Shown here piece after piece: positions 1,563 through 48,873 of a stretch of 64,000 nucleotides of DNA. Every line of letters starts with the position of its first letter. The first letter of the stretch is position 1. The stretch covers positions 8,698 to 72,697 of the forward strand of contig JBKPSH010000074.1 in assembly GCA_046734955.1 (NCBI GenBank), in the 5' to 3' direction. The notes under the pieces are model-generated. The model ran no database searches. It had not been told where the DNA came from and saw only the letters and a list, made by a program, of their open reading frames with translations. This DNA comes from Acidobacteriota bacterium. Lineage in GTDB: Bacteria; Acidobacteriota; Vicinamibacteria; Vicinamibacterales; 2-12-FULL-66-21. A program made the position numbers and the translations under genes.

Positions 1563-4500
1563 GTGAGTCGACAGATTCTGCGCGTGCGCGTGCTCGCCTG
1601 GCTCGGCATTGGGGTGTGTCTCGTCGCGGGGCGAGTGCTCATCGCACAGGGGCCCGCCCAGGTCCCGCCGCTTCCGCCGCCTATCAATCAGTCCGACGAT
1701 CCCATCTTGAAGCCTTTCGTCTGGCGACCGATTGGTCCGGCGAGCATGGGCGGTCGCGTCGATGACATCGCTGTCGTCGAGAGCAATCCAAGCACGATCT
1801 ATCTCGGATTTGCGACCGGCGGAATCTGGAAGAGCACGAATAACGGGACGACATGGATGCCGATCTTCGATACGTATCCTGTCTCCTCAATTGGCGACAT
1901 CGCAATCGCGCCGTCGAACCCCGACATCGTTTACGTCGGCACCGGTGAGCCGAACAATCGTCAGAGTTCCTCGTTCGGCGCCGGCGTGTACAAGTCAATC
2001 GATGGCGGGAAGACCTTTCAGGAGGCTGGCCTGAAAGAAACGCAATCGATCGGCCGCATCGTCGTGCATCCCAAAGATCCGAACATTGCGTACGTCGCCG
2101 CCGTGGGACATCTCTTTGGCCCCAACAAGGAACGCGGTCTCTATAAGACGACCGACGGCGGAAAGACCTGGACCAATACGAAATTCATCGACGACAACAC
2201 GGGATTCACCGACGTCGTGATCGATCCAGGCAATCCGAACATGCTCATCGCTGCGTCGTATCAGCGGCGTCGCACGCCGTGGGGGTTCAACGGCGGCGGG
2301 CCGGGCAGTGGAATCTGGAAGACCACCGATGCCGGCAAGACATGGACGAAGCTCACCAACGGATTACCGAACAATCCGATCATCGGACGGATTGGGCTCG
2401 ACATCGCGCGCTCGAAACCATCGACAATTTACGCGTCGATCGAAGTTGGGCCGAGCGGTGGCACCGGAGCCGGCGTCAACGATGATGGAACGCTGGTGCC
2501 TCCCGGCCAGCGCGGAGGGGGCGGCGGTGGCGGAGGCTTCGGCGGCGGACGCGGTCAGGCTCCTCCGCCAGATCCCAACAAGAGCGGTGTGTGGCGATCG
2601 GATGATGGCGGAAAGAGCTGGCGCTTCCTGTCGAATCAAGGCGATCGGTGGATGTACTACAGCCAGATCCGTGTCGATCCCACTAATCCGGAGATCGCGT
2701 ATCAGGGCGGCGCGCCCTTTTTCAAGAGCACCGACGGTGGAAAAACCTGGAACACCGTTCAAGGCATTCCACATAGCGATCATCACGCGATCTGGATCGA
2801 TCCACGCGATGGCAAACACATCCTGCTTGGCAACGACGGCGGCTTCGACGTGACCTACGACCGCGGCGACACCTGGGAGTACGTCAACAACCTGCCGGTC
2901 GGGCAGTTCTACGCGATTAGCGCGGACATGCGCAAGCCGTATTACGTCTGCGGCGGATTACAAGACAACGGCAGCTGGTGCGGACCGAGCGCCACACGTA
3001 GCGCAAATGGAATTCTGAATTCCGATTGGTATCGCGTCGGCGGCGGCGACGGGTTCTACACGCAGAACGATCAATCGGACTGGACCGTCGTGTACTCCGA
3101 GTCGCAGGACGGCGCCACCAATCGCCTCGATTTACGGACAGGACGCAGCAACAGCATCCGGCCGCGTGGACCAGGACAGGCCGGACGCGGCGGTGGCGGC
3201 GCGCCGGCCGGCGAAACACCCGATCCAGCCGCCCAAGTGCCCGCGCCGTTTGGATTCGCCGGAAATCAAAACCCGAACGTGGTCCCGACGCCGCCGTCAG
3301 GCACGTACTACCGTTTCTACTGGAACACGCCGTTCATTCTTTCGCCACACAATCCGCGAACGATATTTCTCGGTGGTGACCGATTGTTCCGCTCGTACGA
3401 TCGGGGCGACACATGGGTGGCCTCTCCGGATCTGACGAAGAACATCGGCCGCAACGACCGTCCGATTCTCGGCGTCGACGGTTCAGCGCCGATGGCGTCG
3501 AAGCACGATGGCGCAGCGTCGTACAGCAACATCGTCACCATCGGCGAATCGCCGCTGGTGCCGGGCATCATCTGGGTGGGAACCAACGATGGCAATCTTC
3601 AAGTCAGCCGCGACAGCGGCAACACATGGAAGAACGTCGTCGACAAAGTGCCAGGCGTGGCGAAGGAGACGCACGTCTCGCGCGTCGAGCCATCACGCTA
3701 CGATGCCGGCACGTGTTACGTGACATTCGATGCGCATCGCACCGACGATCACAAGCCTTACGTTTTCCTGACGACAGACTTCGGTGAAACGTGGACGTCG
3801 ATCTCGTCGAATCTTCCCGAAGGAAACGTCAACGTCATTCGCGAAGATCCGAAGAACAAGAACCTCCTGTATCTCGGAACCGAGTACGCGTTCTACGTAT
3901 CGCTGAACCGCGGAAGAGAATGGAAGCGGTTCATGAACGGGATGCCGACCGTGCGCATCGACGACATCATGGTCCACCCGCGCGACAACGATCTGATCGT
4001 TGGCACGCACGGGCGAAGCATCTACATCATCGACGACATCACGGCGCTCCAGCAGCTGTCAGACACAACGACCGGGTCAGACGCGGCTTTGCTGGATATC
4101 CGCCCTGGCGTCTCGTGGGTGACCGACATCCAGAAGACTATCCTCACCGAGGGGGCGAAATCCTTCCGCGCGCAGAATCCGTCCCAGGGATCTGCGATCA
4201 GCTACTGGCTGAAGAGCGCTGCGACGTCAGACGTGCGGGTCACGATCAGCGACGTCACCGGCCGTGAGATCCGTACTCTGGTTGGGACGAAGAACGCCGG
4301 CCTCAATCGCGTGCAATGGGACCTACGCGCAGGCGGTGCAGGAGGTCGCGGACGCGGCCAGGGAGGCGGGGCTACTCCGCAGCCAACTGCTGCCGCCGAG
4401 GCCGGAGCACCAGTTGCGCAACCGGTGACACAACAACCGGCCGCGCAACAGCCTGCCGCGCCGGCCGCACCAGACGAAGGGGCGCGTGGAAGAGGAGCGC

Positions 4501-4670
4501 CGACAGCAACGCCGGCGGCGGCACCGAGAGGTGGCGGCGGACGCGGGCGCGGGGGCGTCCAGGGCCCACCGGTCGCGGCGGGCACCTATCTCGTCAAGCT
4601 TATGATCGGCGACAAGCTCATCGGTCAGAAGACGATTGTGGTCGAGGCGGATTCGACGTTTCTGCAGTAG
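1563..4670 (+). CDS. Sortilin/VPS10-type BNR-repeat beta-propeller protein (glycosyl-hydrolase-like), secreted
   Basis: 1035-aa ORF with an N-terminal signal/TM. Repeated S/T-x-D-x-G-x-T-W (BNR/Asp-box) motifs (STNNGTTW, SIDGGKTF, TTDGGKTW, TTDAGKTW, SDDGGKSW, STDGGKTW, SRDSGNTW, TTDFGETW). Carries Gly/Arg and Pro/Ala/Gln low-complexity inserts. Confidence 0.8.
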   Translation: MSRQILRVRVLAWLGIGVCLVAGRVLIAQGPAQVPPLPPPINQSDDPILKPFVWRPIGPASMGGRVDDIAVVESNPSTIYLGFATGGIWKSTNNGTTWMPIFDTYPVSSIGDIAIAPSNPDIVYVGTGEPNNRQSSSFGAGVYKSIDGGKTFQEAGLKETQSIGRIVVHPKDPNIAYVAAVGHLFGPNKERGLYKTTDGGKTWTNTKFIDDNTGFTDVVIDPGNPNMLIAASYQRRRTPWGFNGGGPGSGIWKTTDAGKTWTKLTNGLPNNPIIGRIGLDIARSKPSTIYASIEVGPSGGTGAGVNDDGTLVPPGQRGGGGGGGGFGGGRGQAPPPDPNKSGVWRSDDGGKSWRFLSNQGDRWMYYSQIRVDPTNPEIAYQGGAPFFKSTDGGKTWNTVQGIPHSDHHAIWIDPRDGKHILLGNDGGFDVTYDRGDTWEYVNNLPVGQFYAISADMRKPYYVCGGLQDNGSWCGPSATRSANGILNSDWYRVGGGDGFYTQNDQSDWTVVYSESQDGATNRLDLRTGRSNSIRPRGPGQAGRGGGGAPAGETPDPAAQVPAPFGFAGNQNPNVVPTPPSGTYYRFYWNTPFILSPHNPRTIFLGGDRLFRSYDRGDTWVASPDLTKNIGRNDRPILGVDGSAPMASKHDGAASYSNIVTIGESPLVPGIIWVGTNDGNLQVSRDSGNTWKNVVDKVPGVAKETHVSRVEPSRYDAGTCYVTFDAHRTDDHKPYVFLTTDFGETWTSISSNLPEGNVNVIREDPKNKNLLYLGTEYAFYVSLNRGREWKRFMNGMPTVRIDDIMVHPRDNDLIVGTHGRSIYIIDDITALQQLSDTTTGSDAALLDIRPGVSWVTDIQKTILTEGAKSFRAQNPSQGSAISYWLKSAATSDVRVTISDVTGREIRTLVGTKNAGLNRVQWDLRAGGAGGRGRGQGGGATPQPTAAAEAGAPVAQPVTQQPAAQQPAAPAAPDEGARGRGAPTATPAAAPRGGGGRGRGGVQGPPVAAGTYLVKLMIGDKLIGQKTIVVEADSTFLQ

Positions 4671-4762
4671 TTGGTGAATTGGTGAATTGGGCGACTCACT
4701 GACGCCGGGCGTCCTCAATTCACGATTCACCAACTCATAAATTCATCAATTCACCAATTCAT
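4671..4762. repeat. (GGTGAATT)n inverted-repeat hairpin between convergent genes (bidirectional terminator candidate)
   Basis: ttggtgaattggtgaattgg (4671-4690) is complementary to tcaattcacgattcaccaac (4715-4734). A further copy, tcaattcaccaattca (4746-4761), overlaps the stop of the minus-strand gene. The tract starts 1 nt after the stop at 4670. Confidence 0.7.
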
Positions 4763-7071: not shown

Positions 7072-8561
7072 AAAGGCAATCCGTTCTTTTACCTTTCCTT
7101 TTCCCTTTTGCCTTTTGCCTTTTCCCTTTCCTGTTACTTTGCACCCTCAATTCCGCCGGCTATCGCTACGGCGCCTCCGATCTCGCGTTCTACATCCCGG
7201 CGGCACTCGAACGGCTCGATCCGTCACTCTTCCCGCGGGACGGCGCGTTGATTGCGTCCCAGGCACGATTGACGATGATCGATGAGACGATCGCGGCGCT
7301 GTCGCGCGTCAGCGGACTCGGATTGCCGTCACTGTTCGCGACGTTATACGCGACGACGCTCGCGCTGCTGCTGGCCGGCGCACTTCTGCTTGGACGGTTC
7401 CTGTATCGGACCGAGGCGGCGGCGCTCGCATTCGTTGCCGCCCTGACCTTGCGCCACGCCATCGCGAAGTCGGGGACGAATACACTCGAGGGCTATTTCC
7501 ATCCGCGCCAACTCGCATTCAGTCTTGGGGTTCTGGCGCTGGTCGCACTGATGCAACAGCGCGTGCTCGTCAGCGCGGCGCTTGTCGTCGCCGGTGGTCT
7601 GCTTCATCCGACGACGGCGTTGTGGTTTTCGATCTGGATAGCGATTGCCGCGGCCGTGAACGATCGCCGGTGGCGGCTACCGATGATCCTTGTGGCAATC
7701 GCGGTGGTAATTGCAGCCGCATGGATGCTGGCGGCAGGACCGCTTGCGGGCCGGCTGGTCACGATGGATGACGAGTGGCTGGCGACGCTGGAGACCAAGG
7801 ATTATCTGTTCCCGCTCGAGTGGCCTCTGTATGCGTGGGGACTCAACCTCATTTATCCTCCGACCATTTTTTATATCTACAAACGGCGGTCGGCCATGGG
7901 CATTCTGGCGCCGGGGGAACGAGGATTGGTCTGGGGATGCCTGGCGCTCGTCGGCGTATTTGCAGTCGCGCTGCCGTTGAACGCGGCGCGACTCGCCCTG
8001 GTGATTCAACTCCAGGTACCGCGGGTGTTCTGGATGCTTGATTTTCTCGCCATTGCCTACCTGATCTGGTTGATCGCGGAAGACCTCAAGCCCTCGCCGC
8101 GGCGAGCGGGGATCGTCTGCCTCGTGATCGCGCTGGCATCGCTGACGCGCAGCGCGTACATCAAGTTCCTTAAGTTTCCAGATCGGCCAATCGCCGAAAT
8201 CGGCGTGCCCGACAACGACTGGGGGCGCGTGATGGCGTGGGTGCGCAGTACGCCTCACGACACCGGCTGGCTTGCTCACCCCGGACACGCCGTTCTGTAC
8301 GGAACGAGCGTCAGAGTTGCAGGGCAGCGCGACGTGTTTGTCGAAGGTATCAAGGACGCAGCAATTGGCATGTACGAACGCGACGTCGCCATCCGCACGC
8401 GCGATCGATTGCAAGAGCTGCGCGATTTCGACACGCTGACGCCCGAGCGCGCGACGTCGCTCGGCGCGCGCTATCAGATGGACTTTCTCGTTACGGGTCA
8501 AACTCTCGATCTTCCGGTGGCGTTCTCGAGCGGGCCACTGCGGGTCTATCGCCTGCGATGA
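7068..8561 (+). CDS. Polytopic integral membrane protein of unknown function
   Basis: 497-aa ORF with many hydrophobic segments. The first about 25 codons ([18 protein letters not shown]) are translated from the simple-sequence tract, so the true start is uncertain (alternative ATG near 7279). Confidence 0.6.
   Translation: MKRQSVLLPFLFPFAFCLFPFLLLCTLNSAGYRYGASDLAFYIPAALERLDPSLFPRDGALIASQARLTMIDETIAALSRVSGLGLPSLFATLYATTLALLLAGALLLGRFLYRTEAAALAFVAALTLRHAIAKSGTNTLEGYFHPRQLAFSLGVLALVALMQQRVLVSAALVVAGGLLHPTTALWFSIWIAIAAAVNDRRWRLPMILVAIAVVIAAAWMLAAGPLAGRLVTMDDEWLATLETKDYLFPLEWPLYAWGLNLIYPPTIFYIYKRRSAMGILAPGERGLVWGCLALVGVFAVALPLNAARLALVIQLQVPRVFWMLDFLAIAYLIWLIAEDLKPSPRRAGIVCLVIALASLTRSAYIKFLKFPDRPIAEIGVPDNDWGRVMAWVRSTPHDTGWLAHPGHAVLYGTSVRVAGQRDVFVEGIKDAAIGMYERDVAIRTRDRLQELRDFDTLTPERATSLGARYQMDFLVTGQTLDLPVAFSSGPLRVYRLR
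7092..7141. repeat. Pyrimidine-strand (CCTTTTS)n simple-sequence tract
   Basis: cctttccttttcccttttgccttttgccttttccctttcc lies directly after the DinB stop. It is the complement family of the GGSAAAA tracts at 21025, 23430 and 43479. Confidence 0.8.
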
Positions 8562-9544
8562 ACGATTACGTGCCCAAGCGTGGCCTGACGAACGGCCATC
8601 TCATGACAGTGTATTGCTGGGGAAAGCCGCGCAAGTTCCCGGCGTTACCCGCACCGACCGAACGCCACTTCGATACCGAACCCAAAACCCGCGTCCTCGC
8701 GCATTGCCATTGGCAACGCGATCCCGCCGCGCATCCGGCACTCATCGGCCTGCATGGTCTGGAGGGATCGAGCAGCGCGCACTACATGCGCGGCATGGCG
8801 GCGAAGGCCTACGGACGCGGATTCAACGTCCTCTTGCTCAATCAGCGCAATTGCGGCGGCACGGAATCGCTGTCCGCAGGGCTCTATCACTCGGGTCTCA
8901 CCGCGGATGCTGCCCACGTCATCAGCGAACTCCGACGCGACGGCATCGATCGCGTCGTCGTTGCCGGCTACTCGCTGGGAGGGAACCTGGCGCTCAAGCT
9001 CGCCGGCGACTACGGAAGCGCGCCACCGCCATCGCTGAAAGGCGTGTGTGCCGTGTCGCCCGTGATTGAGCTGGCCGAGTGTGTCAGAGCGCTCGACCGC
9101 CGTGAGAATTTCATTTACCAATGGAATTTTGTCAGAGGGCTGAAGGCGCGGATGCGCCGCAAAGCGGCCGCGCATCCGGGACGATTCCCGCTCGAACGGC
9201 TGTCGCAGGTGCGAACCGTTCGCCAATTCGATGAATACTTCACCGCACCGCACTTCGCGTTCGATGGCGCGGATGATTACTATTTTCGCGCGAGCGCGAT
9301 GCGCGTCGTCGATCGGATCCGCGTGCCGGCGCTCGTCATAACCGCCGAAGACGATCCGTTTGTCCCGGCTGAGATCTTTCGCGATCCACGCCTCCAAACC
9401 AATCCCCACATCAACCTCGTCGTCACCCGGCATGGGGGCCATTGCGGGTTCGTCGCCAATATGAACGGGGTGGACGACGGGTATTGGGCGGAGCGCCGGA
9501 TCGTTGAGTTTGCGGCCGCGGTGACGGAGAGCAGGAATCGCTGA
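8558..9544 (+). CDS. Alpha/beta hydrolase, YheT/ABHD1-3-like
   Basis: ORF track 8237..9544. ATG 8558 overlaps the upstream stop (ATGA). MNDYVPKRGLTNGHLMT..., GLEGSSSAHYMRG, nucleophile elbow GYSLGGN, C-terminal HGGHCGF. Confidence 0.8.
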   Translation: MNDYVPKRGLTNGHLMTVYCWGKPRKFPALPAPTERHFDTEPKTRVLAHCHWQRDPAAHPALIGLHGLEGSSSAHYMRGMAAKAYGRGFNVLLLNQRNCGGTESLSAGLYHSGLTADAAHVISELRRDGIDRVVVAGYSLGGNLALKLAGDYGSAPPPSLKGVCAVSPVIELAECVRALDRRENFIYQWNFVRGLKARMRRKAAAHPGRFPLERLSQVRTVRQFDEYFTAPHFAFDGADDYYFRASAMRVVDRIRVPALVITAEDDPFVPAEIFRDPRLQTNPHINLVVTRHGGHCGFVANMNGVDDGYWAERRIVEFAAAVTESRNR

Positions 9545-9737
9545 TCACTGATCACTGATCGTGAATCCCTTATCCTCGAATCGTCGAATCCCTAATCCTG
9601 GAATCGGCGAATCGCGCCATCGACATTCGATTCAGCGATTCGAGGATTCAAGGATTCATGGATCCACGGATTAGCGATTCGCGATCAGTGATTCAACGAT
9701 GAGCGATTCGCGATCAGTGACTAGTGATAAGGGATTA
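9541..9737. repeat. About 195-bp imperfect palindromic tract of short GATCAST / GAATCS units between convergent genes
   Basis: ctgatcactgatcactgatcg...gaatcccttatcctcgaatcg on the left. Right half carries the complements cgattcgaggattcaaggattca ... cgatcagtgactagtgataagggatt. Fills the whole gap between stops 9544 (+) and 9735 (-). Confidence 0.75.
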
Positions 9738-10433
9738 AGCATCGAGCGCTGAGATCAGGCGACGCGCAAAGTCCGGCCCGAGCCCCTGCTCCTCGTGTTT
9801 GAAGTAGACAAAGACATCCGACAGCCCGAGGGTGCGGATCGTCTGCGCCCATCGGTCGATGTCGGATTGTTGATAGCCCTCGTCGCGGAGGCGGAAGTAA
9901 CCGTAGTCGGCGGTCATCTCGACTGGTGTGTGCAGTTTCTCGCTATCGGCAACACACAACGCGACATTGCGTCGACGCAGCGTGTCGAACGTCTCGGCGT
10001 CGAACCACGATGCGTGACGGAACTCGACTGCCGCGCGCGTCCCTGCTGGAAGTAAATCGACGAACTCGCCGAGCACACGGGCGTCCTTCTTGAACGTCGG
10101 TGGCAGCTGAAAAAGGAGCGTGGCGAGTTTTGGCCCAAGCGTTCGCGCGGTTCGGCAAAAGGTCTGAAGCAAGTCTTCACATCGCTGCAGCTTTGAATCG
10201 TGAGTGATTCGTCGCGGTGCTTTCAGCGTGAACGTGAAGTTGTCAGGTGTCCCGGCAGCCCAGCCGGCGAGCAGTTTCTCGGTGGGAATGCGATAGAAGG
10301 TGTAGTTGATTTCGACCGTCGGAAACCGTTCGGCGTAATACGCGAGCATTTTATTGGTGCTGAGCTTCTCAGGATAAAAAGTGCCGCGCCACTCTGGATA
10401 GTTGTAGCCGGAAGTGCCGATGCGGATGGTCAT
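9735..10433 (-). CDS. DUF72 family protein
   Basis: ORF track 9735..10442. ATG at 10433 gives MTIRIGTSGYNYPEWRGTFYP..., the typical DUF72 N-terminus, and FEFRHASW-like EFRHASWF further on. Confidence 0.85.
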   Translation of the reverse strand: MTIRIGTSGYNYPEWRGTFYPEKLSTNKMLAYYAERFPTVEINYTFYRIPTEKLLAGWAAGTPDNFTFTLKAPRRITHDSKLQRCEDLLQTFCRTARTLGPKLATLLFQLPPTFKKDARVLGEFVDLLPAGTRAAVEFRHASWFDAETFDTLRRRNVALCVADSEKLHTPVEMTADYGYFRLRDEGYQQSDIDRWAQTIRTLGLSDVFVYFKHEEQGLGPDFARRLISALDA

Positions 10434-10438
10434 AGGTG

Positions 10439-10476
10439 TCAATGTTCAATGTTCAATGTTCAATGTTCAGTGTTCG
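10439..10476. repeat. (CAATGTT)5 heptamer array, left inverted arm of four-helix-bundle cassette 1
   Basis: tcaatgttcaatgttcaatgttcaatgttcagtgttcgg. Lies between the DUF72 start and the stop of the four-helix-bundle gene, overlapping that stop at 10467-69. Confidence 0.85.
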
Positions 10477-10853
10477 GAATCCTGAGAGCCGCGGCCGGGA
10501 TTAGATTCGGCAGTCCTTATGATTCTCGTCAGAATTTTCAGGATTTGGTGGCACTCGTCAATAAGCGGTTCTGCCTGCGCTCTTATTGTCGGCTTGGCGA
10601 ACGCGATCAAGCGTAGCCAGTAGCGCGTCTCTGCCGACTCCTTCCGAGCGATGGCCCCCTTTCCAATGAAGTCACGTTTGGTCTGTCCGGCATCAGCTTC
10701 TTCGAGGTTTGCGCCGATTGACGTGCCTGCATCCAGCAATTGTGAGCCGAGTCGTCGGATGACGTAGTCTGATTGAGCCAAGAGCCGGCAAAAATCGATG
10801 ATTTTGCAAGCGAACGTAAATGTGCGTGGTTGAATGTCGTGCGGTCGGGACAT
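10467..10853 (-). CDS. Four-helix-bundle protein (23S rRNA intervening-sequence protein / Avd-like family)
   Basis: ORF track 10467..10973. ATG at 10853 gives a 128-aa protein. Family signature FTFACKIIDFCRLL...LGSQLLDAGTSIGANLEEA...RKESAETRYWLRLI. Confidence 0.85.
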   Translation of the reverse strand: MSRPHDIQPRTFTFACKIIDFCRLLAQSDYVIRRLGSQLLDAGTSIGANLEEADAGQTKRDFIGKGAIARKESAETRYWLRLIAFAKPTIRAQAEPLIDECHQILKILTRIIRTAESNPGRGSQDSEH

Positions 10854-11001
10854 GGCGAGCCGGACTGCACGGCATGTTCCGTTACCGCCGCTCAGGATTC
10901 TCGGCGGAGCCGAAGGACCTCGTGGCGATGAACAGATTGCCGCTCCGAACCATTGCAGAATCCGCGCTGTCAATCACGCAGTTGGTACGCTGCTTCTGCT
11001 C

Positions 11002-11110
11002 CATTGAACATTGAGCATTGAACATTGAACATTGAGCATTGAACATTGAGCATTGAACATTGAGCATTGAACATTGAACATTGAGCATTGAACATTGAAC
11101 ATTGAGCATT
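11002..11110. repeat. (CATTGAR)~15 heptamer array, right inverted arm of cassette 1
   Basis: 109 bp of cattgaa/cattgag units, the reverse complement of the CAATGTT array at 10439-10476. Generates the spurious MFNVQCS ORFs. Confidence 0.9.
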
Positions 11111-11244
11111 TGTGGGACTGCTCCGCCCATTTACGAACAGTGTGATGGGAGGCAATTCGGACGGTTGATCCCATATAACTTACATAAATTCAACAACTTA
11201 CACCTCGGTCCCTGCCGTGGCAAACCCTTGGCTATCACTCCGAT

Positions 11245-13674
11245 ATGCTCCACGACCTTCGGCATGCTGTCCGTGGACTTCTCAAGGCTCCCGGGTTCGC
11301 TGCGGTATCGATTCTCACGCTGGCGGTCGGGATCGGTGCAAACACGGCGGTGCTCAGCCTCGCCCGCGCTGTCTTCTTAACTCCTCTACCCTTCAAGGAT
11401 CCGGACAGGCTGGTCGCGATTGCTGAGCGGCGTCCGAGCAGCCGAACGAGCAACATCTCCATTTCCGGACATGAGTTCGCCGCGTGGAGAGAACAAAATC
11501 GGGTGTTCGAGGAGATCGCTCTCTACCACCCCACGGGGCTCAACCTCACAGGAGTCGGAGAACCACGAGCCGTCCAAGTGATCGAAGCGTCGGTCAATTA
11601 TTTGCCGATGCTTGGTTTATCGCCCGCGCTCGGACGCTGGTTCGATGACGGCGAGAACCGGGTTGCGATCGTGAGCGATCCGTTATGGCGGCAGCGTTTC
11701 GCTGGCGATCCGGCGGCCATCGGGCGGACGGTCACGTTAAACGATCAGTCCTACACAGTCGTCGGCGTCATGCCTCCCTTACCCCGGTCGTTGACGCCCG
11801 ATCTGGTCCTGCCGCTCGACATCCCTGAGCAGATACGCGCGGTCGGGCGGCACAATCTCAGCGCGTTCGCGCGCCTGCGTCAGGACGTGTCGCTCGAGGC
11901 CGCGCAGCGCGATCTCAGCGCGATTGCCGATCGTCTTGCCGCCGAGAGGCCGCGCGATAACACCGGTCACGGAGTCGCGGTGACGCCGCTGAGAGAAGAA
12001 ATGGTTGGCGAGTTCCGGCGCGCGTCGTGGCTCATGGTTGCAGCGGTGGGTTTCGTGCTGTTGATCGGTTGCGCGAACGTGGCGAACCTGCTTCTCGCGC
12101 GAGGCGCCAACCGTCAGCGCGAGATCGCGATCCGCACCGCGCTCGGCGCAGGCCGTGCGCGAATCGTGCGGCAACTGCTGGTCGAGTCTCTTGTCCTCGC
12201 CGTGCTGAGCGGCGCGGCAGGACTGCTGATGTCGGCGTGGATTATCGATCTGACGCCGACTCTGTCCGCCGTAAACATTCCGCTGCTCGAAACGACGAGT
12301 CTTGGATGGGCGGGTCTTGCGCTCGCCTCGGCTATCTCATTAATGACCGGACTCGCCGCCGGCATGGTGCCTGCCCTGCGTTCGTCGCTGGTCCGCCCTG
12401 GCTGGCTGCGCGAGAGTCATCAAGTCTCGGACGACCGAAGTGGACGAATGATGCGCAATGCGCTGGTCGCGGCGGAAGTAGGACTGACGCTCGTTCTGCT
12501 TGTCGGTGCCGGCCTGATGGTCACGAGCTTTGCCCGGCTCGTCGAAGTTGATCCTGGTTTTCGAACCCGTGACGTGCTGGTCGTCCCAGTTGATCTGCCC
12601 GCTTCCCGCTATGCCGAGGCGTATCAGCGTCGCGGTTTCTTCGATCGTGTCATCGGCAGCATTGAAGGAATTCCTGGAGTGCAGGCAGCCGGTGCAGTGT
12701 CGCACTTGCCGCTCGGCGGCGCCGACAACTGGATGCCCTTTCGAATGCTGGGCAAGCCGGACCCCGGACCTGGTCAGGAACCCTACGCGCCATTTCGTGT
12801 CGCAACGCCTCATTACTTTTCGGCGCTCGGCATTCCGCTTCGCCGCGGACGGTTGTTCAATGACGGCGACGCCCGCCAGTCGGTGCCGCTCATCCGATGG
12901 TTTCCGCAACAGCCGTATCCACCCGGATACGACAAGCCTCAAGCCACGCCTGTAGCTATCGTGAGTGAAAGCGCCGCGAAACAGTTCTGGCCCGGGAGCG
13001 ATCCGATTGGCCAGCGTATTCGTGTGATGCTCAGTCCCGACGTCACGATCGTCGGCGTCGCCGGCGACGTGCACCACAATGGTCTCGATCTTCCCAGCTA
13101 CCCTCACATCTATCTACCTCATAACCAGGAGCCGTGGGGTTCTGTGTCGCTCGTTGTTCGCACGGCGGTCACTCCCAGCGAACTCGCACCGGCGGTGCGT
13201 GAGCGCATACGCGCCGCGGATCCCGAATTGCCAATCTCGGTCCGAACAATGACGGATGTGATGTCCACATCGGTTGGCCGACCACGCCTCTACGCTGCAA
13301 TGACCGCGGTTTTCGGATCAGTGGCGCTTCTGCTCGCGCTGGTTGGAATCTTTGGCGTGGTGAGTTACGTCGCGACGCAACGCACGCGAGAGATCGGTGT
13401 GCGCATGGCACTCGGCGCTCAACGGCGCGAAATTCTCATGCTCGTCGTCGGTCAGGAGATGCGCCCGATTGCGGTGGGGATCGGTCTTGGCGTCCTGACC
13501 GCGGTCGCCATCACTCGTTTCATGGCGAAGCTGCTCTTTCAGGTCACGCCGCTCGATCCACTCACCTTCGCTGTCGTGACGACGTTGCTCGGTGTGGTGG
13601 CGCTGGTCGCCTGCTGGATCCCGGCGCGACGTGCGACTCACGTCGATCCGCTAACCTCGCTTCGCGCTGAATGA
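11245..13674 (+). CDS. ADOP family permease (MacB-like, duplicated FtsX domains), paralog 1
   Basis: 809 aa. N-terminus MLHDLRHAVRGLLKAPGFAAVSILTLAVGIGANTAV. Two FtsX-type 4-TM halves separated by large periplasmic domains. C-terminus DPLTSLRAE. Confidence 0.85.
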   Translation: MLHDLRHAVRGLLKAPGFAAVSILTLAVGIGANTAVLSLARAVFLTPLPFKDPDRLVAIAERRPSSRTSNISISGHEFAAWREQNRVFEEIALYHPTGLNLTGVGEPRAVQVIEASVNYLPMLGLSPALGRWFDDGENRVAIVSDPLWRQRFAGDPAAIGRTVTLNDQSYTVVGVMPPLPRSLTPDLVLPLDIPEQIRAVGRHNLSAFARLRQDVSLEAAQRDLSAIADRLAAERPRDNTGHGVAVTPLREEMVGEFRRASWLMVAAVGFVLLIGCANVANLLLARGANRQREIAIRTALGAGRARIVRQLLVESLVLAVLSGAAGLLMSAWIIDLTPTLSAVNIPLLETTSLGWAGLALASAISLMTGLAAGMVPALRSSLVRPGWLRESHQVSDDRSGRMMRNALVAAEVGLTLVLLVGAGLMVTSFARLVEVDPGFRTRDVLVVPVDLPASRYAEAYQRRGFFDRVIGSIEGIPGVQAAGAVSHLPLGGADNWMPFRMLGKPDPGPGQEPYAPFRVATPHYFSALGIPLRRGRLFNDGDARQSVPLIRWFPQQPYPPGYDKPQATPVAIVSESAAKQFWPGSDPIGQRIRVMLSPDVTIVGVAGDVHHNGLDLPSYPHIYLPHNQEPWGSVSLVVRTAVTPSELAPAVRERIRAADPELPISVRTMTDVMSTSVGRPRLYAAMTAVFGSVALLLALVGIFGVVSYVATQRTREIGVRMALGAQRREILMLVVGQEMRPIAVGIGLGVLTAVAITRFMAKLLFQVTPLDPLTFAVVTTLLGVVALVACWIPARRATHVDPLTSLRAE

Positions 13675-21018: not shown

Positions 21019-21024
21019 CCGGAA

Positions 21025-21066
21025 GGCAAAAGGGAAAAGGGAAAGGGAAAAGACAGGAACAGGAAC
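21025..21066. repeat. Purine-strand (GGSAAAA)n simple-sequence tract between ADOP paralogs 4 and 5
   Basis: ggcaaaagggaaaagggaaagggaaaagacaggaacaggaac occupies most of the 53-bp gap. Confidence 0.8.
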
Positions 21067-23429: not shown

Positions 23430-23467
23430 AAAGGGAAAAGGCACAAGGGAAAAGGGAAAAGGAAAGG
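23430..23467. repeat. 38-bp purine-rich left inverted repeat of four-helix-bundle cassette 2
   Basis: aaagggaaaaggcacaagggaaaagggaaaaggaaagg starts at the base after the ADOP5 stop. Its reverse complement matches 24046-24083 at 33 of 38 positions (my manual alignment). Confidence 0.85.
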
Positions 23468-23599
23468 TAACAAGGCAGCAAGCCAAAAAGAGCGACCTTG
23501 CCACCCAGCCAGAGGTTGCATTTACTGCGACGTCAGCAGAAACGACCTCGAAATTCCTCGTGAATCTTGAGCGGAACGGCGCGTGCATCGTTGTGCGAC

Positions 23600-24028
23600 A
23601 TGGCTCAGAAACCGTACGACTTTCGCCAGCGCTCGTTTCTGTTCGCGTGCGACATCGTCGCATTTGCGCGAATCGTCGCCGCCCGAGGTTACATCTTCGG
23701 CCGACTCGCGACGCAGTTGGTCAAGTCTGGTGCATCCGTCGGCGCAAATCTGGAAGAAAGTGTCGACGGACAATCGAAACCCGACTTCACTTCGAAGCAA
23801 TCGATCGCATTGAAAGAGGCGCGTGAAGCGCGATTCTGGCTTCGGCTCATCGCCGCGAGCGAACCCTCACTCGCCCCGCGCGCTCAGCCACTCATTACCG
23901 AAGCATCAGAATTCGTCGCGATGCTGACGGCATCTGTGAAGACCGCCAAATCCAACCCGTACCGAGGAGCAAGGCGAGCTGCAATCGGCTGCCTTGTCCT
24001 CTTTGTGGTTCTTCTGCTGTGGCAGTAA
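23600..24028 (+). CDS. Four-helix-bundle protein (23S rRNA intervening-sequence protein / Avd-like family), second copy
   Basis: ORF track 23567..24028. ATG 23600 gives MAQKPYDFRQRSFLFACDIVAFARIV...LATQLVKSGASVGANLEES...LKEAREARFWLRLI. Has a hydrophobic C-terminal tail. Confidence 0.85.
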   Translation: MAQKPYDFRQRSFLFACDIVAFARIVAARGYIFGRLATQLVKSGASVGANLEESVDGQSKPDFTSKQSIALKEAREARFWLRLIAASEPSLAPRAQPLITEASEFVAMLTASVKTAKSNPYRGARRAAIGCLVLFVVLLLWQ

Positions 24029-24045
24029 TGCCCGCTCGGCTTTGA

Positions 24046-24083
24046 CCTTTCCTTTTCCCTTGTGCCTTTTCCCTTGTCCCTTT
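24046..24083. repeat. 38-bp pyrimidine-rich right inverted repeat of cassette 2
   Basis: cctttccttttcccttgtgccttttcccttgtcccttt, complementary to 23430-23467. Confidence 0.85.
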
Positions 24084-24134: not shown

Positions 24135-24755
24135 CTACGGACGAATCGCGACTTCGTACGAAGCAACTTCGGCTGGACTGGCACCGCCGACAACGCGGGT
24201 AAGCGCGATCTCGTACGCGCCGGGTGCGAAGACGTCGCCGGTGATCAACGCCGTCACCATTCGCTTGTCGTCCACGGTCGCCGCGGTCAGCGCGCTTCGT
24301 GACCATACGGTGTCGCCGCCACTCCACGTCCGGATCGCAATGCTGTAGCGCGCGTCCCGTGTTTCGGTGCGACCGGGAAGTAAAAGCCGCAGTTGAATCG
24401 CTTGATGATCGGCTGGTTTTGCGACGGTCGGATCGGGCGGCTCCGCGCCTCTCTTGATCAACGGAGAGAGCGTGAGCGTCGGCTGCGTGACGGGAGCGCC
24501 CGTGCCGTGCTGGCGCGCGAGCTGGAGCGCCACCGCTTCGCGTGCCGCCCGGTCGCGCGCTGCCTGTGCGCTCAACTTGTCGAATTCGAGGCGTGCATTC
24601 AGGTCGGCGGCGCGCAATGATGCGATTTCCGTTCGCGCCCGTAACAACGCGGCGCCCTCTCCTACGGCAACGAGGACGAGCACGATACCGAGAGCGACGA
24701 AGAGCCATTGAAGGCCCGGACGTTCGAGCCCACTCACCGGACGCATGACGCCCAC
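24135..24755 (-). CDS. Hypothetical membrane-anchored protein with coiled-coil segment
   Basis: 206-aa ORF. One TM (WLFVALGIVLVLVAV) followed by a heptad-like Ala/Arg/Leu-rich stretch. No recognised family. Confidence 0.5.
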   Translation of the reverse strand: MGVMRPVSGLERPGLQWLFVALGIVLVLVAVGEGAALLRARTEIASLRAADLNARLEFDKLSAQAARDRAAREAVALQLARQHGTGAPVTQPTLTLSPLIKRGAEPPDPTVAKPADHQAIQLRLLLPGRTETRDARYSIAIRTWSGGDTVWSRSALTAATVDDKRMVTALITGDVFAPGAYEIALTRVVGGASPAEVASYEVAIRP

Positions 24756-24816
24756 ACGATATACTGTTCCTCGCCTATCCCCAATTCTTCAGGACCTGCA
24801 GCGAGGTACGCTCTGC

Positions 24817-27800
24817 ATGTTTGCCGTCCGACAGATCTCCACTGCGCTGGTTTTGACCGCGGCACTTGGTGCGGCGGTCGTGGCACAAGACACAATCGCT
24901 CCTCAGTCATCGACGAGCGCCACCGACAAGAATCAAGGCTCGACACCGAAGGAATTCAAGGCGCTCAAATATCGATTGATTGGACCCGCCGCCGGCGGAC
25001 GCGTGGCACGCGCAGCAGGCGTAGCCGGTGATCCGGCGACCTACTACCTTGCTGCCGCCTCCGGCGGCGTCTGGAAGTCAACTGACGGCGGTGCCAGTTG
25101 GAAGCCCGTCTTCGACGATCAACCGATCTCCTCGATCGGATCGATCGCGATCTCGCCGTCGAACCCGAGCATCGTGTATGTCGGATCCGGCGAAGCGAAT
25201 ATTCGCGGCAACGTCGCCGCCGGTAACGGCATCTACAAATCGTCCGACGCAGGCAAAACGTGGGCGCACGTGTGGGACCACGAAGGGCAGATCGGCAAGA
25301 TGGTCGTCCATCCAGAAAATCCGGATATCGCGTTCGCCGCGGTCCTCGGTCACGCGTTCGGACCCAATGCCGATCGTGGCGTGTTTCGCACGAAGGACGG
25401 CGGAAAAACATGGGTTCAGGTTTTGAAGAAAGACGAGAGCACCGGCGCGTCGGACGTCGAGATGGATCCGTCCAACCCGCTCGTCATCTTCGCAGGGTTC
25501 TGGCAGGCGCGCCGCTTTCCGTGGGACCTCGTCAGCGGCGGACCAGGCAGCGGCCTCTATGTGTCGCGCGACGGCGGCGACACATGGAAACAACTCAAGG
25601 GAGAAGGCCTGCCCGACGGGATCTGGGGAAAGATCGGCATTGCGATCGCTCCGTCGGACAGCCGACGGGTGTACGCGCTAATCGAAGCCGACAAAGGCGG
25701 ACTGTTTCGATCCGACGACGGTGGCGCAACGTGGCAGCTGGCGAATCCTGCCCGCGCGCTGCGGCAGCGGGCCTGGTATTACTCGACACTGACCGTCAGT
25801 CCAACCAATCGCGAGGACCTGTGGTTTCCACAGGTGCCGATGCTTCACTCGATCGACGGCGGCAAGACGATCCAGTACGTCAAGGGCCTGCACCATGGCG
25901 ATCATCATGACGTCTGGATCGATCCGAAGAATCCGAAACGGATGATCGCCGCCAACGATGGCGGCGTCGACATTTCGACCAATGGCGGGGAATCGTGGTT
26001 CGCGCCGCCGCTTCCGCTCGGTCAGTTCTATCACGTGTCGGTCGACAACCGCAGACCCTATCACGTGGCCGGCGCGATGCAGGACCTCGGCACCGCCCAG
26101 GGACCGAGTCAAACCTTCGGCCGCAACATCGCCTTATCGGACTGGCACAATGTCGGCGGCGGCGAAGCCGGTCACGTCGTTTCCGACGCGAGCGATCCAA
26201 ACATCGTCTATGCGGGCGAGTACCTCGGCATCATCACCCGATACGATCACCGCACCGGCGAGTCGCGGAACGTCAGCGCCTGGCCCGAGAATCCTTCGGG
26301 CCACGGCGGCGAGGACATGAAATATCGCTTCCAGTGGACCGCGCCAATTGCCGCCTCTCCGCACGACGCGAAAGTGATTTATCACGGCGCGCAAGTGATC
26401 TTCCGCACGACCAACGGCGGTCAGAGCTGGGACGTGATCTCGCCGGACCTGACGCGCAACGACAAATCGAAACAGAAATGGGCCGGCGGACCCATCACCG
26501 GCGACAACACCGGCGTCGAAACCTACGACACCGTATTCGCCATCGCTGAATCGCCGATGCAGAAGGGGTTGATCTGGGCGGGCACCGACGATGGGCTCGT
26601 GCATGTGACCCGCGATGGCGGACAGACCTGGACGAACGTGACCGCCGCAATGACCGGCATGCCCGAGTGGGGCACGGTCACGATGATCGAGCCCTCACCG
26701 TTCGATCCCTCAATCGCCTATGTCGTAGTGGACGCCCATCGACTCGACAATGTGCACCCCTTTCTGTTCAAGACCGCGGACTACGGGCAGACATGGAAGC
26801 GACTGGACGCGAAGCTGCCGCAGGACGTTTACCTCCACGCGGTTCGCGAGGATCCGAAGAAGAAGGGGCAGCTGTATCTGGGCACGGAACGTGGCGTCAT
26901 GTTCTCAACCGACGGCGGCGAAACGTGGCGGGATCTCAGGCTGAACCTGCCGACAGTGGCAGTGCACGATCTTGTCGTCAAAGATGATGATCTGGTCGTC
27001 GCCACGCACGGCCGTTCGCTGTGGATTTTTGACGACCTGCGGCCGGTTCGCGATTTCAACGCCGCTATTGCTTCTTCCTCTTTTCACCTCTTCCCTGTCG
27101 CCGATCCGATCCGGTGGCGGCTCGGAAGCGATGCATATGGCGCGAAAGCCGCGGGCTTTCCCAACCCGCCGCCCGGCGTCTCCATTTCCTATTTCCTGAA
27201 AGAGAAAGCCAAGGGTGAGGTGAAAATCGAAATCCTCGACGGTCAAGGCACTGTCGTTCGAAAGCTCACCAGCATCCCGCGTGAACCGGATGGCAGCGAC
27301 GACAACGAAGATCCCGAAGAACTCAAGAAAGCCGCGCTGTCGGTCGAGGCTGGCGTGCAGCGGACGTCGTGGGATCTCGCCTGGCAGGGGGCCGCGAAGA
27401 TTAAAGGCGGCAAGATCGACACCGGGGATCCGATCGATGGTCCACGTGCGGTGCCCGGCCCCTATACGGTGCGTCTCACCGTCGATGGCAAAACCCAAAC
27501 GGCGCCGATACAGATCCTGCCGGATCCTCGCGGTGGAATCAGCCAGGCCGATCTCGAAGCTCAAGTCGCCCATGCGCTGCGCGTGCGGGACGACGTGACG
27601 AAGTTGACGTCTCTCGTCAACGATTTGCGCTCGGTCAAGGAGCAACTGAAGGCACGGTCGAAAGCGCTCGAACCACGCAAAGAAGAATCCGGCGTGACGG
27701 AACTGATGAAAGCCTCGGACGATGTCATCGAGAAAGCGGACGCGCTCGAAGACAAGCTGCACAACCGCACGGCGGAAGTCGTGTACGACATTCTCGCGAT

Positions 27801-28020
27801 GCGTGGCGGCACGCGTTTGTACTCGCGACTCGTGCCGCTGCAAACCTGGGCGGTGGAGGGGGACGGTCCGCCGACGGCGGGCATGGTGCAGGTGCTAGAG
27901 GTTCAGGAGAAGGAACTCGCCGAGCTGGAGCGCGAAACGCGAAACTTCATCGAGGAAGAAGTCGGCACACTCAATGCCACGGCGGTCAAGCTTGGGCTGT
28001 CATTCGTCATTGTGAAGTGA
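24817..28020 (+). CDS. Sortilin/VPS10-type BNR-repeat beta-propeller protein, paralog 2
   Basis: ORF track 24745..28020. ATG 24817 gives the signal peptide MFAVRQISTALVLTAALGAAVVAQ. Many Asp-box motifs (STDGGASW, SSDAGKTW, TKDGGKTW, SRDGGDTW, SDDGGATW, SIDGGKT, TTNGGQSW, TRDGGQTW, TADYGQTW, STDGGETW). C-terminal helical extension. Confidence 0.8.
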   Translation: MFAVRQISTALVLTAALGAAVVAQDTIAPQSSTSATDKNQGSTPKEFKALKYRLIGPAAGGRVARAAGVAGDPATYYLAAASGGVWKSTDGGASWKPVFDDQPISSIGSIAISPSNPSIVYVGSGEANIRGNVAAGNGIYKSSDAGKTWAHVWDHEGQIGKMVVHPENPDIAFAAVLGHAFGPNADRGVFRTKDGGKTWVQVLKKDESTGASDVEMDPSNPLVIFAGFWQARRFPWDLVSGGPGSGLYVSRDGGDTWKQLKGEGLPDGIWGKIGIAIAPSDSRRVYALIEADKGGLFRSDDGGATWQLANPARALRQRAWYYSTLTVSPTNREDLWFPQVPMLHSIDGGKTIQYVKGLHHGDHHDVWIDPKNPKRMIAANDGGVDISTNGGESWFAPPLPLGQFYHVSVDNRRPYHVAGAMQDLGTAQGPSQTFGRNIALSDWHNVGGGEAGHVVSDASDPNIVYAGEYLGIITRYDHRTGESRNVSAWPENPSGHGGEDMKYRFQWTAPIAASPHDAKVIYHGAQVIFRTTNGGQSWDVISPDLTRNDKSKQKWAGGPITGDNTGVETYDTVFAIAESPMQKGLIWAGTDDGLVHVTRDGGQTWTNVTAAMTGMPEWGTVTMIEPSPFDPSIAYVVVDAHRLDNVHPFLFKTADYGQTWKRLDAKLPQDVYLHAVREDPKKKGQLYLGTERGVMFSTDGGETWRDLRLNLPTVAVHDLVVKDDDLVVATHGRSLWIFDDLRPVRDFNAAIASSSFHLFPVADPIRWRLGSDAYGAKAAGFPNPPPGVSISYFLKEKAKGEVKIEILDGQGTVVRKLTSIPREPDGSDDNEDPEELKKAALSVEAGVQRTSWDLAWQGAAKIKGGKIDTGDPIDGPRAVPGPYTVRLTVDGKTQTAPIQILPDPRGGISQADLEAQVAHALRVRDDVTKLTSLVNDLRSVKEQLKARSKALEPRKEESGVTELMKASDDVIEKADALEDKLHNRTAEVVYDILAMRGGTRLYSRLVPLQTWAVEGDGPPTAGMVQVLEVQEKELAELERETRNFIEEEVGTLNATAVKLGLSFVIVK

Positions 28021-40228: not shown

Positions 40229-40379
40229 ATCCGTGTTCATTGTCGGGATCCGTTGGCCGGGATCCGGGATCCGATCCGTGTGAATCCGTGTTCTTCCGTG
40301 ATCCGTCTTTTTCCGTGGTCCATGTTCTTCCGTGTTCTTCCGTGGCCCGTGTTTTTCCGTGGCCCGTGTTCTTCCGTGG
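40229..40379. repeat. Degenerate CCGTG-TTCTT-CCGTGG tandem array in a divergent promoter region
   Basis: gatccgtgttcat...gaatccgtgttcttccgtgatccgtctttttccgtggtccatgttcttccgtgttcttccgtggcccgtgtttttccgtggcccgtgttcttccgtgg. Same family as 48712-48853. Confidence 0.85.
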
Positions 40380-40504
40380 TCAGGATACGGCGGCCCCGCG
40401 CGCGAATCCCAGTGTTTCCGGTGAACGCCCCCACCCTGCCGGTAAACGGCGTCTTGTCCACCGTAGCCATGCGCGACGGCGGATGTTTGGTAACATGGCC
40501 GCTC

Positions 40505-41974: not shown

Positions 41975-42015
41975 CCTTTCCCTTTTGCCTTTTGCCTTTT
42001 CCCTTTTGCCTTTTT
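41975..42015. repeat. Pyrimidine-strand (CCTTTTS)n tract between convergent genes
   Basis: cctttcccttttgccttttgccttttcccttttgccttttt, complementary to the purine tract at 43479-43512. Confidence 0.8.
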
Positions 42016-42743: not shown

Positions 42744-43478
42744 ATGGCTTTTTTTTCGAAGGCGCCGCAACCGGCAGTAACCGCGCAGAATGAGGTAGCC
42801 CTTGCGCCGAACGCGCTGATCGCGCTTCGCAATATCGAGAAATCGTACGCCCACGGCACCAGCCGCACCTACGTGTTGCGTCGCATCAACCTCGACGTCA
42901 AGGAAGGCGAGTTCATCTCGATTATGGGACCGTCGGGCGCCGGCAAGTCGACGCTGCTACACATCATCGGCATGCACGACAGTGCATGGACGGGCGAGTA
43001 CTACTTCCTCGATCAACCGGTACACAAACTGGCGGCGAAGGATCGCGCCAAACTGCACAAGCAGTACATCGGCTTTGTATTTCAAAGCTACCACTTGCTC
43101 GATCACCTGACGGTATATGAGAACCTCGACATCCCCCTCTCGTACCGCGACATCAAGAAATCGGAGCGCGAGAGCATGGTGTGCGACATTCTCGATCGCT
43201 TCGCAATCGTCGGCAAAAAAGATCTGTATCCGAATCAGCTCTCAGGTGGCCAGCAGCAGCTGGTCGCCGTCGCCCGCGCGGTGATCTCGAATCCGAAAGT
43301 CATTCTCGCCGATGAACCGACCGGCAACCTGCATACCAGTCAGGGCAAAGAGATCATGGAGCTGTTCAAGAAACTGAATGAAGCTGGGACGACGATCATC
43401 CAGGTCACGCACTCGGAGACGAATGCGGCGTATGGAAGCCGGGTCGTGAATTTGAGAGACGGATGGGTCGTCGATTAA
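42744..43478 (+). CDS. ABC transporter ATP-binding protein, MacB/LolD/FtsE-type (no adjacent permease)
   Basis: Walker [10 protein letters not shown], signature [14 protein letters not shown], Walker [12 protein letters not shown]. Matches the ATPase subfamily that normally partners FtsX-domain permeases. Confidence 0.85.
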
Positions 43479-48853: not shown

Positions 48854-48873
48854 CGGCGAGGAGGTCGCACACC

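Follow-up and report, generated by a model that had tools for sequence, protein, structure and literature searches.

An Acidobacteriota PF05635 gene between inverted heptamer arrays: a probable extraribosomal counterpart of ORF-bearing rRNA intervening sequences

Examination of a 64,000-nucleotide stretch of an Acidobacteriota bacterium genome (contig JBKPSH010000074.1; this whole stretch is hereafter the window) points to a distinct genetic element at positions 10439-11110, termed cassette 1, in which a gene of the PF05635/TIGR02436 family (the IVP gene, here IVP1) is enclosed by tandem heptamer arrays forming inverted repeats. We interpret cassette 1, with a probability of roughly 65%, as an extraribosomal copy of the open reading frame (ORF)-bearing intervening sequence (IVS) element, namely a PF05635/TIGR02436 gene within tandem-heptamer inverted repeats. 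This is a large multi-copy family that was found inside rRNA IVSs some three decades ago. Sequence comparisons across phyla suggest that its association with inverted heptamer arms is a family-wide rule linking the extraribosomal genes to the classical rRNA IVS, and that the latter is probably one instance of a general arm-plus-ORF design. The arms turn the gene family into a defined genetic element, with the arm duplex, the binding of heptamers by the protein, and inversion and slippage as its testable parts. In the literature searched we found no paper linking extraribosomal PF05635 genes to inverted heptamer arrays, which does not prove that there is none; the inversion polymorphism, a one-armed empty site and the strain-level slippage of the arms described below are new.

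Anatomy of the cassette

Cassette 1 lies in the divergent spacer between a DUF72 gene (9735-10433, minus strand) and the first of five ADOP-type permease paralogues (MacB_PCD plus FtsX; 11245-13674, plus strand). The short arm on the DUF72 side, to which no strand is assigned, consists of 5.3 copies of TCAATGT (10439-10475; period 7, 96% matches by Tandem Repeats Finder), and the long arm on the ADOP side of 15.6 copies of CATTGAR with the unit CATTGAA (11002-11110; period 7, 89% matches by the same program), in agreement with the approximately 15.5 reverse-complementary units reported in the initial annotation. The arms are mutual reverse complements, 37-nt arms being 89-95% complementary in every register, and have a GC content of 32% and 34%, respectively, versus 62% for the window. 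The 14-mer CAATGTTCAATGTT, allowing up to 2 mismatches, is found at 19 sites in the 64-kb window, all 19 of them inside the cassette-1 arrays; the expectation from shuffles is 0.19, and none of 100 shuffles reached 19.

The interior of the cassette comprises IVP1 (10467-10853, minus strand), whose 128 codons specify a four-helix bundle of 128 aa, and a 148-nt leader connecting the long arm to the start codon (10854-11001, minus strand); the total of 672 bp is as originally given. IVP1 ends in GAA CAC TGA (E-H-stop), which is itself an array unit, such that the last two codons and the stop lie inside the short arm. The array at the 3' side of the gene had been described as five units which overlap this stop and touch the DUF72 start. 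The former part stands, but the alignment of DUF72 homologues, which begin M(T/S/N)I(R/L)IGTSGY, indicates that the most likely start is ATG 10433 and not TTG 10442; hence, the array stops 5 nt short of the DUF72 gene without overlapping it. Directly outside the long arm, and thus outside the cassette, is a conserved flank, TGTGGGACTGCTCCGCCCATTTACGAACAGTGTGA (11111-11146, plus strand), which is also found in relatives without the cassette and fixes the outer boundary. This flank displays the motif TGGGAC-N16-GAACAGTGTGA, which is conserved ahead of the first ADOP gene whether or not a relative has the cassette; it occurs once in the window, and GTGGGAC..CGAACA-like sequences are visible in loci L008, L009, L014 and L018. 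The motif probably serves the DUF72/ADOP divergent region as an operator or promoter element.

In the predicted fold of the cassette-1 transcript the arms form a closing stem of approximately 37 bp in both the minimum free energy (MFE) and centroid structures (MFE -237 kcal/mol, z = -4.7). They provide the terminal inverted repeats, enclosing the ORF with a stem of some 20 bp or more, that typify an ORF-bearing IVS. A further 15-nt inverted repeat lies within the arms (10477-10491/10886-10900), with its leader half in a poorly conserved stretch of the leader alignment. The leader is otherwise moderately conserved in close relatives, with GGAAC and GTGCA motifs approximately 10-25 nt before the ATG; it co-inverts with the ORF and is presumably the site of the cassette's own promoter. 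An Rfam search of the cassette at a permissive E-value yielded only a chance match to a long noncoding RNA and no family for the leader.

The protein family and its selection

IVP1 matches PF05635 with 55.4 bits (cut-off 33.8) and TIGR02436 with 76.9 bits (cut-off 24), both above the curated thresholds, which bears out the earlier identification of a four-helix-bundle gene on the minus strand. A profile of the alignment of IVP1 and its relatives (alignment A1) matches PDB 2RLD, an entry of 5 chains, with E = 1.9e-29. The PF05635 motif has been given as GxxRxxxSxxxNxxE (quoted in PMC3936711); its S45-x3-N49-x2-E52 portion is present in IVP1 and invariant in alignment A1, and in this subfamily Q38 and D41 occupy its GxxR positions. 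The ratio of nonsynonymous to synonymous substitutions (dN/dS) of IVP1 versus its relatives is 0.04-0.14, and the protein is under purifying selection in both of the orientations described below.

The only other PF05635 gene in the window is IVP2 (23600-24028, plus strand), which is 47% identical to IVP1. The GC content at third codon positions is 0.59 for IVP1 and 0.64 for IVP2, versus 0.69-0.74 for the three neighboring genes measured, a difference that would fit either a horizontal origin or weak expression. IVP2 and its close relatives (L175-L178) share a hydrophobic C-terminal tail of approximately 16 residues (..IGCLVLFVVLLLWQ; 23960-24028 in IVP2), which is absent from IVP1 and most family members and suggests a putative membrane-anchored subfamily. 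A profile search of viral contigs with the IVP alignment recovered no relatives. PF05635 genes have been noted within cas operons, for example between cmr3 and cmr2 (PMC3936711), and, elsewhere in the literature, in rRNA insertions of bacteria of the candidate phyla radiation, both of which fit an element able to sit inside transcription units.

The initial annotation had further placed the gene in the "Avd family", which raises the question of whether IVP1 is the Avd accessory of a diversity-generating retroelement (DGR). A distant relationship between the four-helix-bundle families holds, and it is the only point in favor of this assignment. No reverse transcriptase is found among the approximately 55 window ORFs scanned (template and variable repeats were not searched for), the repeats around the IVP gene are the heptamer arms, no DGR protein is among the PDB sequence matches, and the PADLOC defence models gave no match. 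A role as a DGR accessory is thus effectively refuted for this locus, and we regard it as very improbable indeed.

Association of the family with inverted heptamer arms

A profile search of genome contigs with the IVP alignment gave a sample of at least 80 loci from Acidobacteriota, Planctomycetota, Verrucomicrobiota, Cyanobacteria, Chloroflexota, Bacteroidota, Proteobacteria and others. The matches listed, to which all the figures in this section apply, are 39-53% identical to the query, and 78 genes among them were usable. Each gene was given the score of its best local inverted repeat, sought between 400 nt of upstream sequence and the segment from -30 to +250 downstream, with 30 or more being taken as strong. 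The IVP genes have a median score of 37 and reach 30 in 54 of 78 cases (69%), as against a median of 19 and 3 of 203 for other ORFs of the same loci (Fisher p = 5e-35), and a median of 20 and 1 of 270 for random positions. The period of the arms is 7 in 52 of the 54 armed loci, and the length of the paired arms clusters near 4-5 units. On the sense strand, purines make up a mean fraction of 0.74 of the upstream arm, with no value below 0.4, and the 3' arm is pyrimidine-rich; the upstream arm also has an AT content of 66%. The whole unit has a median of 458 bp, and the arms are separated from the ATG by a median of 13 nt and from the stop by 11.5 nt.

The arm units vary by locus, with GAAGNGT, (C/G)AAAAGK, GAATTGR, GAATGTT and AATTAAA recurring across phyla. 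This prevalence of arms built from many different units supports the earlier proposal that the architecture, and not the arm sequence, is the conserved property. The leader of approximately 150 nt, which had been counted as part of this architecture, has to be removed from it: the median distance from arm to ATG elsewhere being 13 nt, the leader is a local peculiarity of the two cassettes of the window. The cassettes fill intergenic spacers, with a median of approximately 50 nt to each neighbor, and are co-directional with both neighbors in 44 of 73 cases, the divergent arrangement seen in cassette 1 being the rarest (4/73). As a divergent site has no upstream gene that could supply transcription, a promoter in the leader would fit this setting. 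Two loci contain a pair of IVP cassettes within approximately 2 kb, namely L155 (3992-4354 and 6221-6595), in which both have the same arm unit GAAGGGT/GAAGAGT, and L120 (168-536 and 1672-2037), in which the units differ (AATTCAA and AAGTCAC).

The regularity of the arms could alternatively mean that they are arrays of binding sites for the IVP protein, probably a homopentamer as suggested by the 5 chains of 2RLD, serving autoregulation or RNA packaging, with their complementarity as a by-product. The near-strict period of 7, the arm length of approximately 4-5 units, the presence of approximately 5 units in the DUF72-side arm of most relatives of cassette 1, and the co-variation of arm unit and protein similarity (Mantel r = 0.24, p = 0.0005) are all consistent with this, as is the nucleic acid binding of the related Avd proteins known from the DGR literature. 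However, direct repeats would serve equally if only binding mattered, yet the arms are inverted in 69% of the loci. The correlation is also modest, is confounded by shared ancestry and may simply reflect co-inheritance. We therefore hold binding as the primary function of the arms to be quite unlikely.

Inversion of the segment between the arms

Syntenic relatives of cassette 1 were obtained as metagenome contigs through an exact-protein look-up of the closest IVP1 homologues. The cassette has the orientation of the window in L170 and L171 (IVP 79% identical to IVP1) and the opposite orientation in L001 (82%), L002-L006 (78%; one identical protein on six contigs, five of which are shown as loci) and L167-L169 (81%, with the N-terminus of DUF72 being 96-97% identical). 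All loci of the latter three groups retain the gene order abhydrolase, DUF72, cassette, ADOP; they have, like the window, a CAATG-type arm by DUF72 and a CATTGA-type arm by ADOP, and they retain the sequence outside the long arm, in which CATT is followed by TCTGGGAC and, farther on, by CGAACAGTGTGA. It is the leader and the ORF that are reversed relative to the window, with the arms fixed relative to the flanks. Consistent with this, in blastn comparisons the window segments 9711-10472 and 11070-11699 are colinear with L001 and L002, and 10445-10880 is inverted, its nucleotide identity of 77-79% being in the same range as that of the flanks.

In neighbor-joining trees, the window is the partner of L167 for both the DUF72 flank and the IVP gene, and for the ADOP flank it shares a clade with L002 and L167, all these being relatives with the opposite orientation. 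L170, which shares the orientation of the window, falls outside its group in all three trees. At least two inversions are therefore needed, and the segment between the arms has inverted at least twice in this clade. The trees are crude and based on short sequences, but all that the conclusion demands is that L170 be more distant from the window than a flipped relative is, as is seen in every table of pairwise identities. The opposite orientations are unlikely to be an assembly artefact, as the short arm (approximately 35 bp) is below the read and final k-mer lengths and each orientation is present in independent assemblies.

As the arms are inverted copies of each other, the sense transcript has the same 5'-arm and 3'-arm sequence in either orientation. 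The ORF likewise runs into GAACAYTGA both ways, with the C-termini reading SEH in the window, VEH in L002 and MDH in L001. What changes is the gene downstream: IVP1 reads into DUF72 in the window, and its flipped counterparts read into the first ADOP gene. These features would also be expected of a programmed switch, in which a leader promoter drives DUF72 or the ADOP array depending on orientation and a recombinase flips the arms at high frequency. Two or more independent events with the arms fixed to the flanks, correct ORF ends in both states, the co-inverting leader and the alternative downstream neighbors all favor such a switch. On the other hand, no recombinase, invertase or transposase is detected among the approximately 55 window ORFs scanned against Pfam, and in most members of the family there is no leader to accommodate a promoter. 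The segment within the inverted repeats does occur both ways, but between diverged relatives only; neither a cognate tyrosine or serine recombinase among the ORFs scanned nor mixed orientation among near-identical contigs was found. Orientation is instead uniform within each group of near-identical contigs (6, 3 and 2 contigs, from different samples), and lineages that differ in orientation are separated by a synonymous divergence (dS) of approximately 0.8 or more. The second cassette of the window, moreover, is unflipped in five relatives. Inversion is therefore rare, and the events are best read as occasional homologous recombination from arm to arm; a programmed switch appears distinctly doubtful.

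Gain, loss and slippage

A search with the DUF72 protein uncovered syntenic sites that are free of the cassette. In L007 (DUF72 91% identical) the spacing between DUF72 and ADOP is 165 bp and contains neither the ORF nor a second arm; the spacer retains a single array of 4.5 units, which is oriented like the ADOP-side arm and has the same conserved flank after it. L008 and L009 (DUF72 84-86% identical) have neither array nor ORF. The cassette is thus gained or lost as a unit among close relatives. L007 is no farther from the window than is the cassette-bearing L170, which favors, though not firmly, loss of the cassette in L007. In L172-L174 a cassette with CAATGTT arms and a 70%-identical protein occupies another locus, between tandem ADOP paralogues on the opposite strand.

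That array lengths are polymorphic between strains, a possibility raised at the outset, is borne out by contigs encoding identical IVP proteins: the arms comprise 8, 8, 10, 12 and 13 units on those with protein P0005 and 8, 9 and 9 units on those with P0003, and the upstream arm 6, 6 and 9 units on those with P0011. The arms therefore change by whole units between near-identical strains. At the locus of cassette 1 the long ADOP-side arm is hypervariable among relatives (approximately 4 to 15.6 units), and the DUF72-side arm has approximately 5 units in the window, L001 and L167-L169, and 4 in L170 and L171. As the latter holds regardless of the orientation of the ORF, the asymmetry of short and long arms belongs to the site; its conservation, which the initial annotation had proposed to check, holds relative to the flanking genes but not relative to the polarity of the ORF.

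The second cassette and other arrays of the window

The second cassette (23430-24082, plus strand), given in the initial annotation as 23430-24083, was recovered as described, with an AAAGGGA-type arm (23430-23465) and a CCTTTTC-type arm (24048-24082), a leader and IVP2 between them. It directly follows the stop of the fifth ADOP gene, such that the five MacB_PCD plus FtsX paralogues sit between the two cassettes, as had been stated. In five relatives it has the same orientation and arm family and is never flipped; a flipped version would place its gene antisense to the ADOP operon. IVP cassettes thus recur beside ADOP genes, namely before the array, after it and, in L172-L174, between tandem ADOP paralogues on the opposite strand, which may only reflect the high number of ADOP genes in these genomes.

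The window contains more than 15 AT-rich short-unit arrays in intergenic spacers, many of them solo. GGGAAAA-type arrays, the family of the second cassette, are found at 7 sites, only 2 of which flank an IVP gene; further arrays of this GGGAAAA/AAAAGGC family, none flanking an IVP gene, are at 7084-7131, 21023-21050, 41975-42014, 43477-43519 and 52335-52357. One of these five lies between the fourth and fifth ADOP genes. The pair at 41977/43477 (38 nt, 89-94% complementary) brackets two divergent genes, for a 188-aa protein of unknown function and an ABC ATPase, in a polarity opposite to that of the IVP cassettes, with the pyrimidine-rich arm first. Another repeat family, of TCCGTGTTCT type with periods of 10, 17, 27 and 44, is found at 40270-40381, 48712-48854 and 49892-49936, the last two sites being inverted (up to 45 nt, 84-91% complementary) and bracketing an SPFH/Band-7 gene (48850-49743).

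Four ORF-less hairpins were also detected: 56121-56206, with 38-nt arms of TGCTGAA-type units and a 10-nt loop, between zf-HC2 and thioesterase genes; 46124-46159, a perfect 36-bp palindrome of AATTGGTG units; 4671-4761, with 18-nt arms and a 51-nt loop; and 9536-9736, where GAATC-type 7-8-mers build an imperfect palindrome of approximately 200 bp in the spacer that separates the abhydrolase gene from the convergent DUF72 gene. These may be counterparts of the IVP cassettes in the same way as short ORF-less IVSs are in rRNA.

Such arrays suggest an alternative in which the arms are generic intergenic heptamer arrays, i.e. simple sequence repeats (SSRs) or hairpins acting, for instance, as terminators or insulators, and the IVP gene is an ordinary resident or tends to land beside them. 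The abundance of arrays in the window, the GGGAAAA sites lacking an IVP gene, the ORF-less hairpins, the inverted arrays around the SPFH gene and the ABC ATPase pair, and the single array retained in L007 all speak for this view, and so does the finding that heptanucleotides are the commonest long SSR class in most genomes surveyed, as reported in PMC4679880. Against it, the bracket is specific to the family across phyla (54/78 versus 3/203 neighboring genes among the matches listed), and the sample of at least 80 loci already indicates a paired-arm fraction far above the expectation from array density. The CAATGTT family occurs nowhere in the window beyond the cassette-1 arrays; its unit follows the IVP1 subfamily to the other locus in L172-L174, just as the GGGAAAA unit accompanies the IVP2 subfamily in the relatives compared, and arm unit and protein similarity are correlated, as noted above. 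A purely generic origin of the arms is accordingly unlikely in our view.

Of the remaining content of the window, two paralogous Sortilin/BNR-repeat proteins of 1035 and 1091 aa (1563-4670 and 24745-28020) lie on either side of the region. There are two extracytoplasmic function (ECF) sigma factor genes, one of which (51548-52234) adjoins a zf-HC2 anti-sigma-type gene (50771-51541); a further zf-HC2 gene is at 55870-56124.

A possible mechanism and the points against it

Under the interpretation of cassette 1 as an extraribosomal IVS-like element, the arm duplex of approximately 37 bp would, by analogy with rRNA IVSs, be a substrate of RNase III, which would cut the cassette out of any transcript crossing it, release the IVP message and uncouple the flanking RNA. 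Excision of this kind would explain how the elements are tolerated in 5' untranslated regions, operons and rRNA without harm to the host genes. At the DNA level the arms would slip and occasionally recombine with each other by homologous recombination, giving rise to the inversions. These might be tolerated because the site is a divergent promoter region, where the gene, whichever way it lies, points away from one neighbor and runs into the other; a promoter in the leader, inverting along with the IVP gene, would maintain its expression in both orientations.

Several observations weigh against this interpretation. Processing by RNase III is here a proposal drawn from the analogy. The mismatches between the arms, read on the sense strand, comprise 36 G.U-compatible and 40 A.C cases, with no excess and no RNA-level signal, such that the complementarity may be maintained in the DNA rather than in the RNA, though flipping itself would erase such a signal. 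A scan of 10300-11350 for sigma-70 and terminator consensus sequences gave nothing above shuffles and nothing in the leader. The comparison of filled and empty sites uncovered no obvious target-site duplication and no transposition signature, and there is no transposase among the window ORFs scanned; we infer mobility of the cassette only from its presence or absence and from the same-arm copy at the second locus in L172-L174. The rarity of inversion, with uniform orientation in each contig group and the second cassette unflipped, is a further point of this kind. Arrays lacking the ORF do exist in relatives, with one in L007 and none in L008 or L009, and in this genome the GGGAAAA family is mostly unpaired around IVP genes, the CAATGTT family being confined in the window to cassette 1. 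Together with the numerous solo arrays and the inverted arrays around other genes (41977/43477 and 48712/49892), this implies that the arrays have a life beyond the cassette. L007 and the unpaired GGGAAAA arrays weaken the notion that arrays exist only for the ORF, but not the link between the architecture and the family.

The arrays may be a wider system with the IVP gene as one player. One tentative formulation, to which we assign a low but not negligible likelihood, is a two-part system in which a ring of the PF05635 protein, probably pentameric, would recognize approximately 5 tandem heptamers in RNA or DNA. The ORF cassette would then be the master copy, the hairpins and solo arrays derivatives of it, much as REPINs are to RAYT, and the rRNA IVS a special case that landed in an rRNA helix. 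If so, recombination between arms would make every cassette potentially invertible. For annotation, the arms offer a simple marker for IVP genes, and may mislead assemblers and repeat or CRISPR finders.

Comparison with known systems

The closest known systems are the ORF-bearing rRNA IVSs, of which those in the 23S rRNA of Leptospira, Xanthomonas, Brucella and Haemophilus are named examples; cutting by RNase III has been demonstrated for the rRNA IVSs of Leptospira and Salmonella. The Coxiella burnetii IVS, which also is cut by RNase III in vitro, at a terminal inverted-repeat stem of 28 bp, is 428 nt in length, resides in helix 45 of the 23S rRNA, carries the S23p ORF and displays, directly upstream of the ATG, an AG-rich stretch and 2-3 tandem GACAGAT heptamers whose number varies with the strain (PMC4990558). 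The cassettes share with the rRNA IVS a protein of the same family encoded in the loop and terminal inverted repeats closing a stem, and with that of Coxiella tandem heptamers of variable copy number in the arm upstream of the ORF and an AG-rich 5' side. The sizes are also of a similar order, with 672 bp for cassette 1 and a median of 458 bp for the sampled loci against the 428 nt of the Coxiella element. Unlike the rRNA IVSs, cassette 1 lies outside rRNA and not in a 23S or 16S helix: no Rfam family is detected at gathering score anywhere in the window, and none of the 23S motifs tested is present in any fetched locus, including the homologue loci listed, such that there is no rRNA-embedded copy to compare. 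Further differences are its much longer arrays (5 and 15.6 units), its 148-nt leader and the occurrence of its inner segment in both orientations among relatives.

Invertible switches such as fimS, hin and the invertible promoters of Bacteroides resemble the cassette in being segments bounded by inverted repeats that occur in both orientations, with a different neighbor gene downstream in each state. They differ in that no site-specific recombinase was found for cassette 1 among the window ORFs scanned, its arms consist of simple repeats that are long and variable instead of short defined sites, its inversions separate diverged lineages only, and its segment carries a conserved protein gene. 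The REP/REPIN elements with RAYT are similar in that a single gene is bracketed by inverted copies of a short repeat family, and the GGGAAAA family is also scattered in intergenic regions as solo copies and hairpins. In contrast to RAYT, the IVP protein lacks a transposase fold and a catalytic motif, and its repeats are tandem heptamers rather than the 20-40-nt palindromic units of REP.

Abundant intergenic heptamer repeats are reported in Beggiatoaceae (TAACTGA), cyanobacteria (STRR) and some Bacteroidetes (PMC4679880); they are presented as direct repeats lacking a paired inverted partner, and a term search of that paper gave no link to PF05635 genes. The STRR and TAACTGA repeats differ from the IVP arms in this lack of inverted pairing, and are like them in being period-7 intergenic arrays, often upstream of starts or overlapping stops. 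Since a period of 7 is not divisible by 3, any stop triplet in the unit comes up in every reading frame over a stretch of 21 nt. For some of the unexplained intergenic heptamer repeats known from several phyla, the IVP cassettes offer an explanation.

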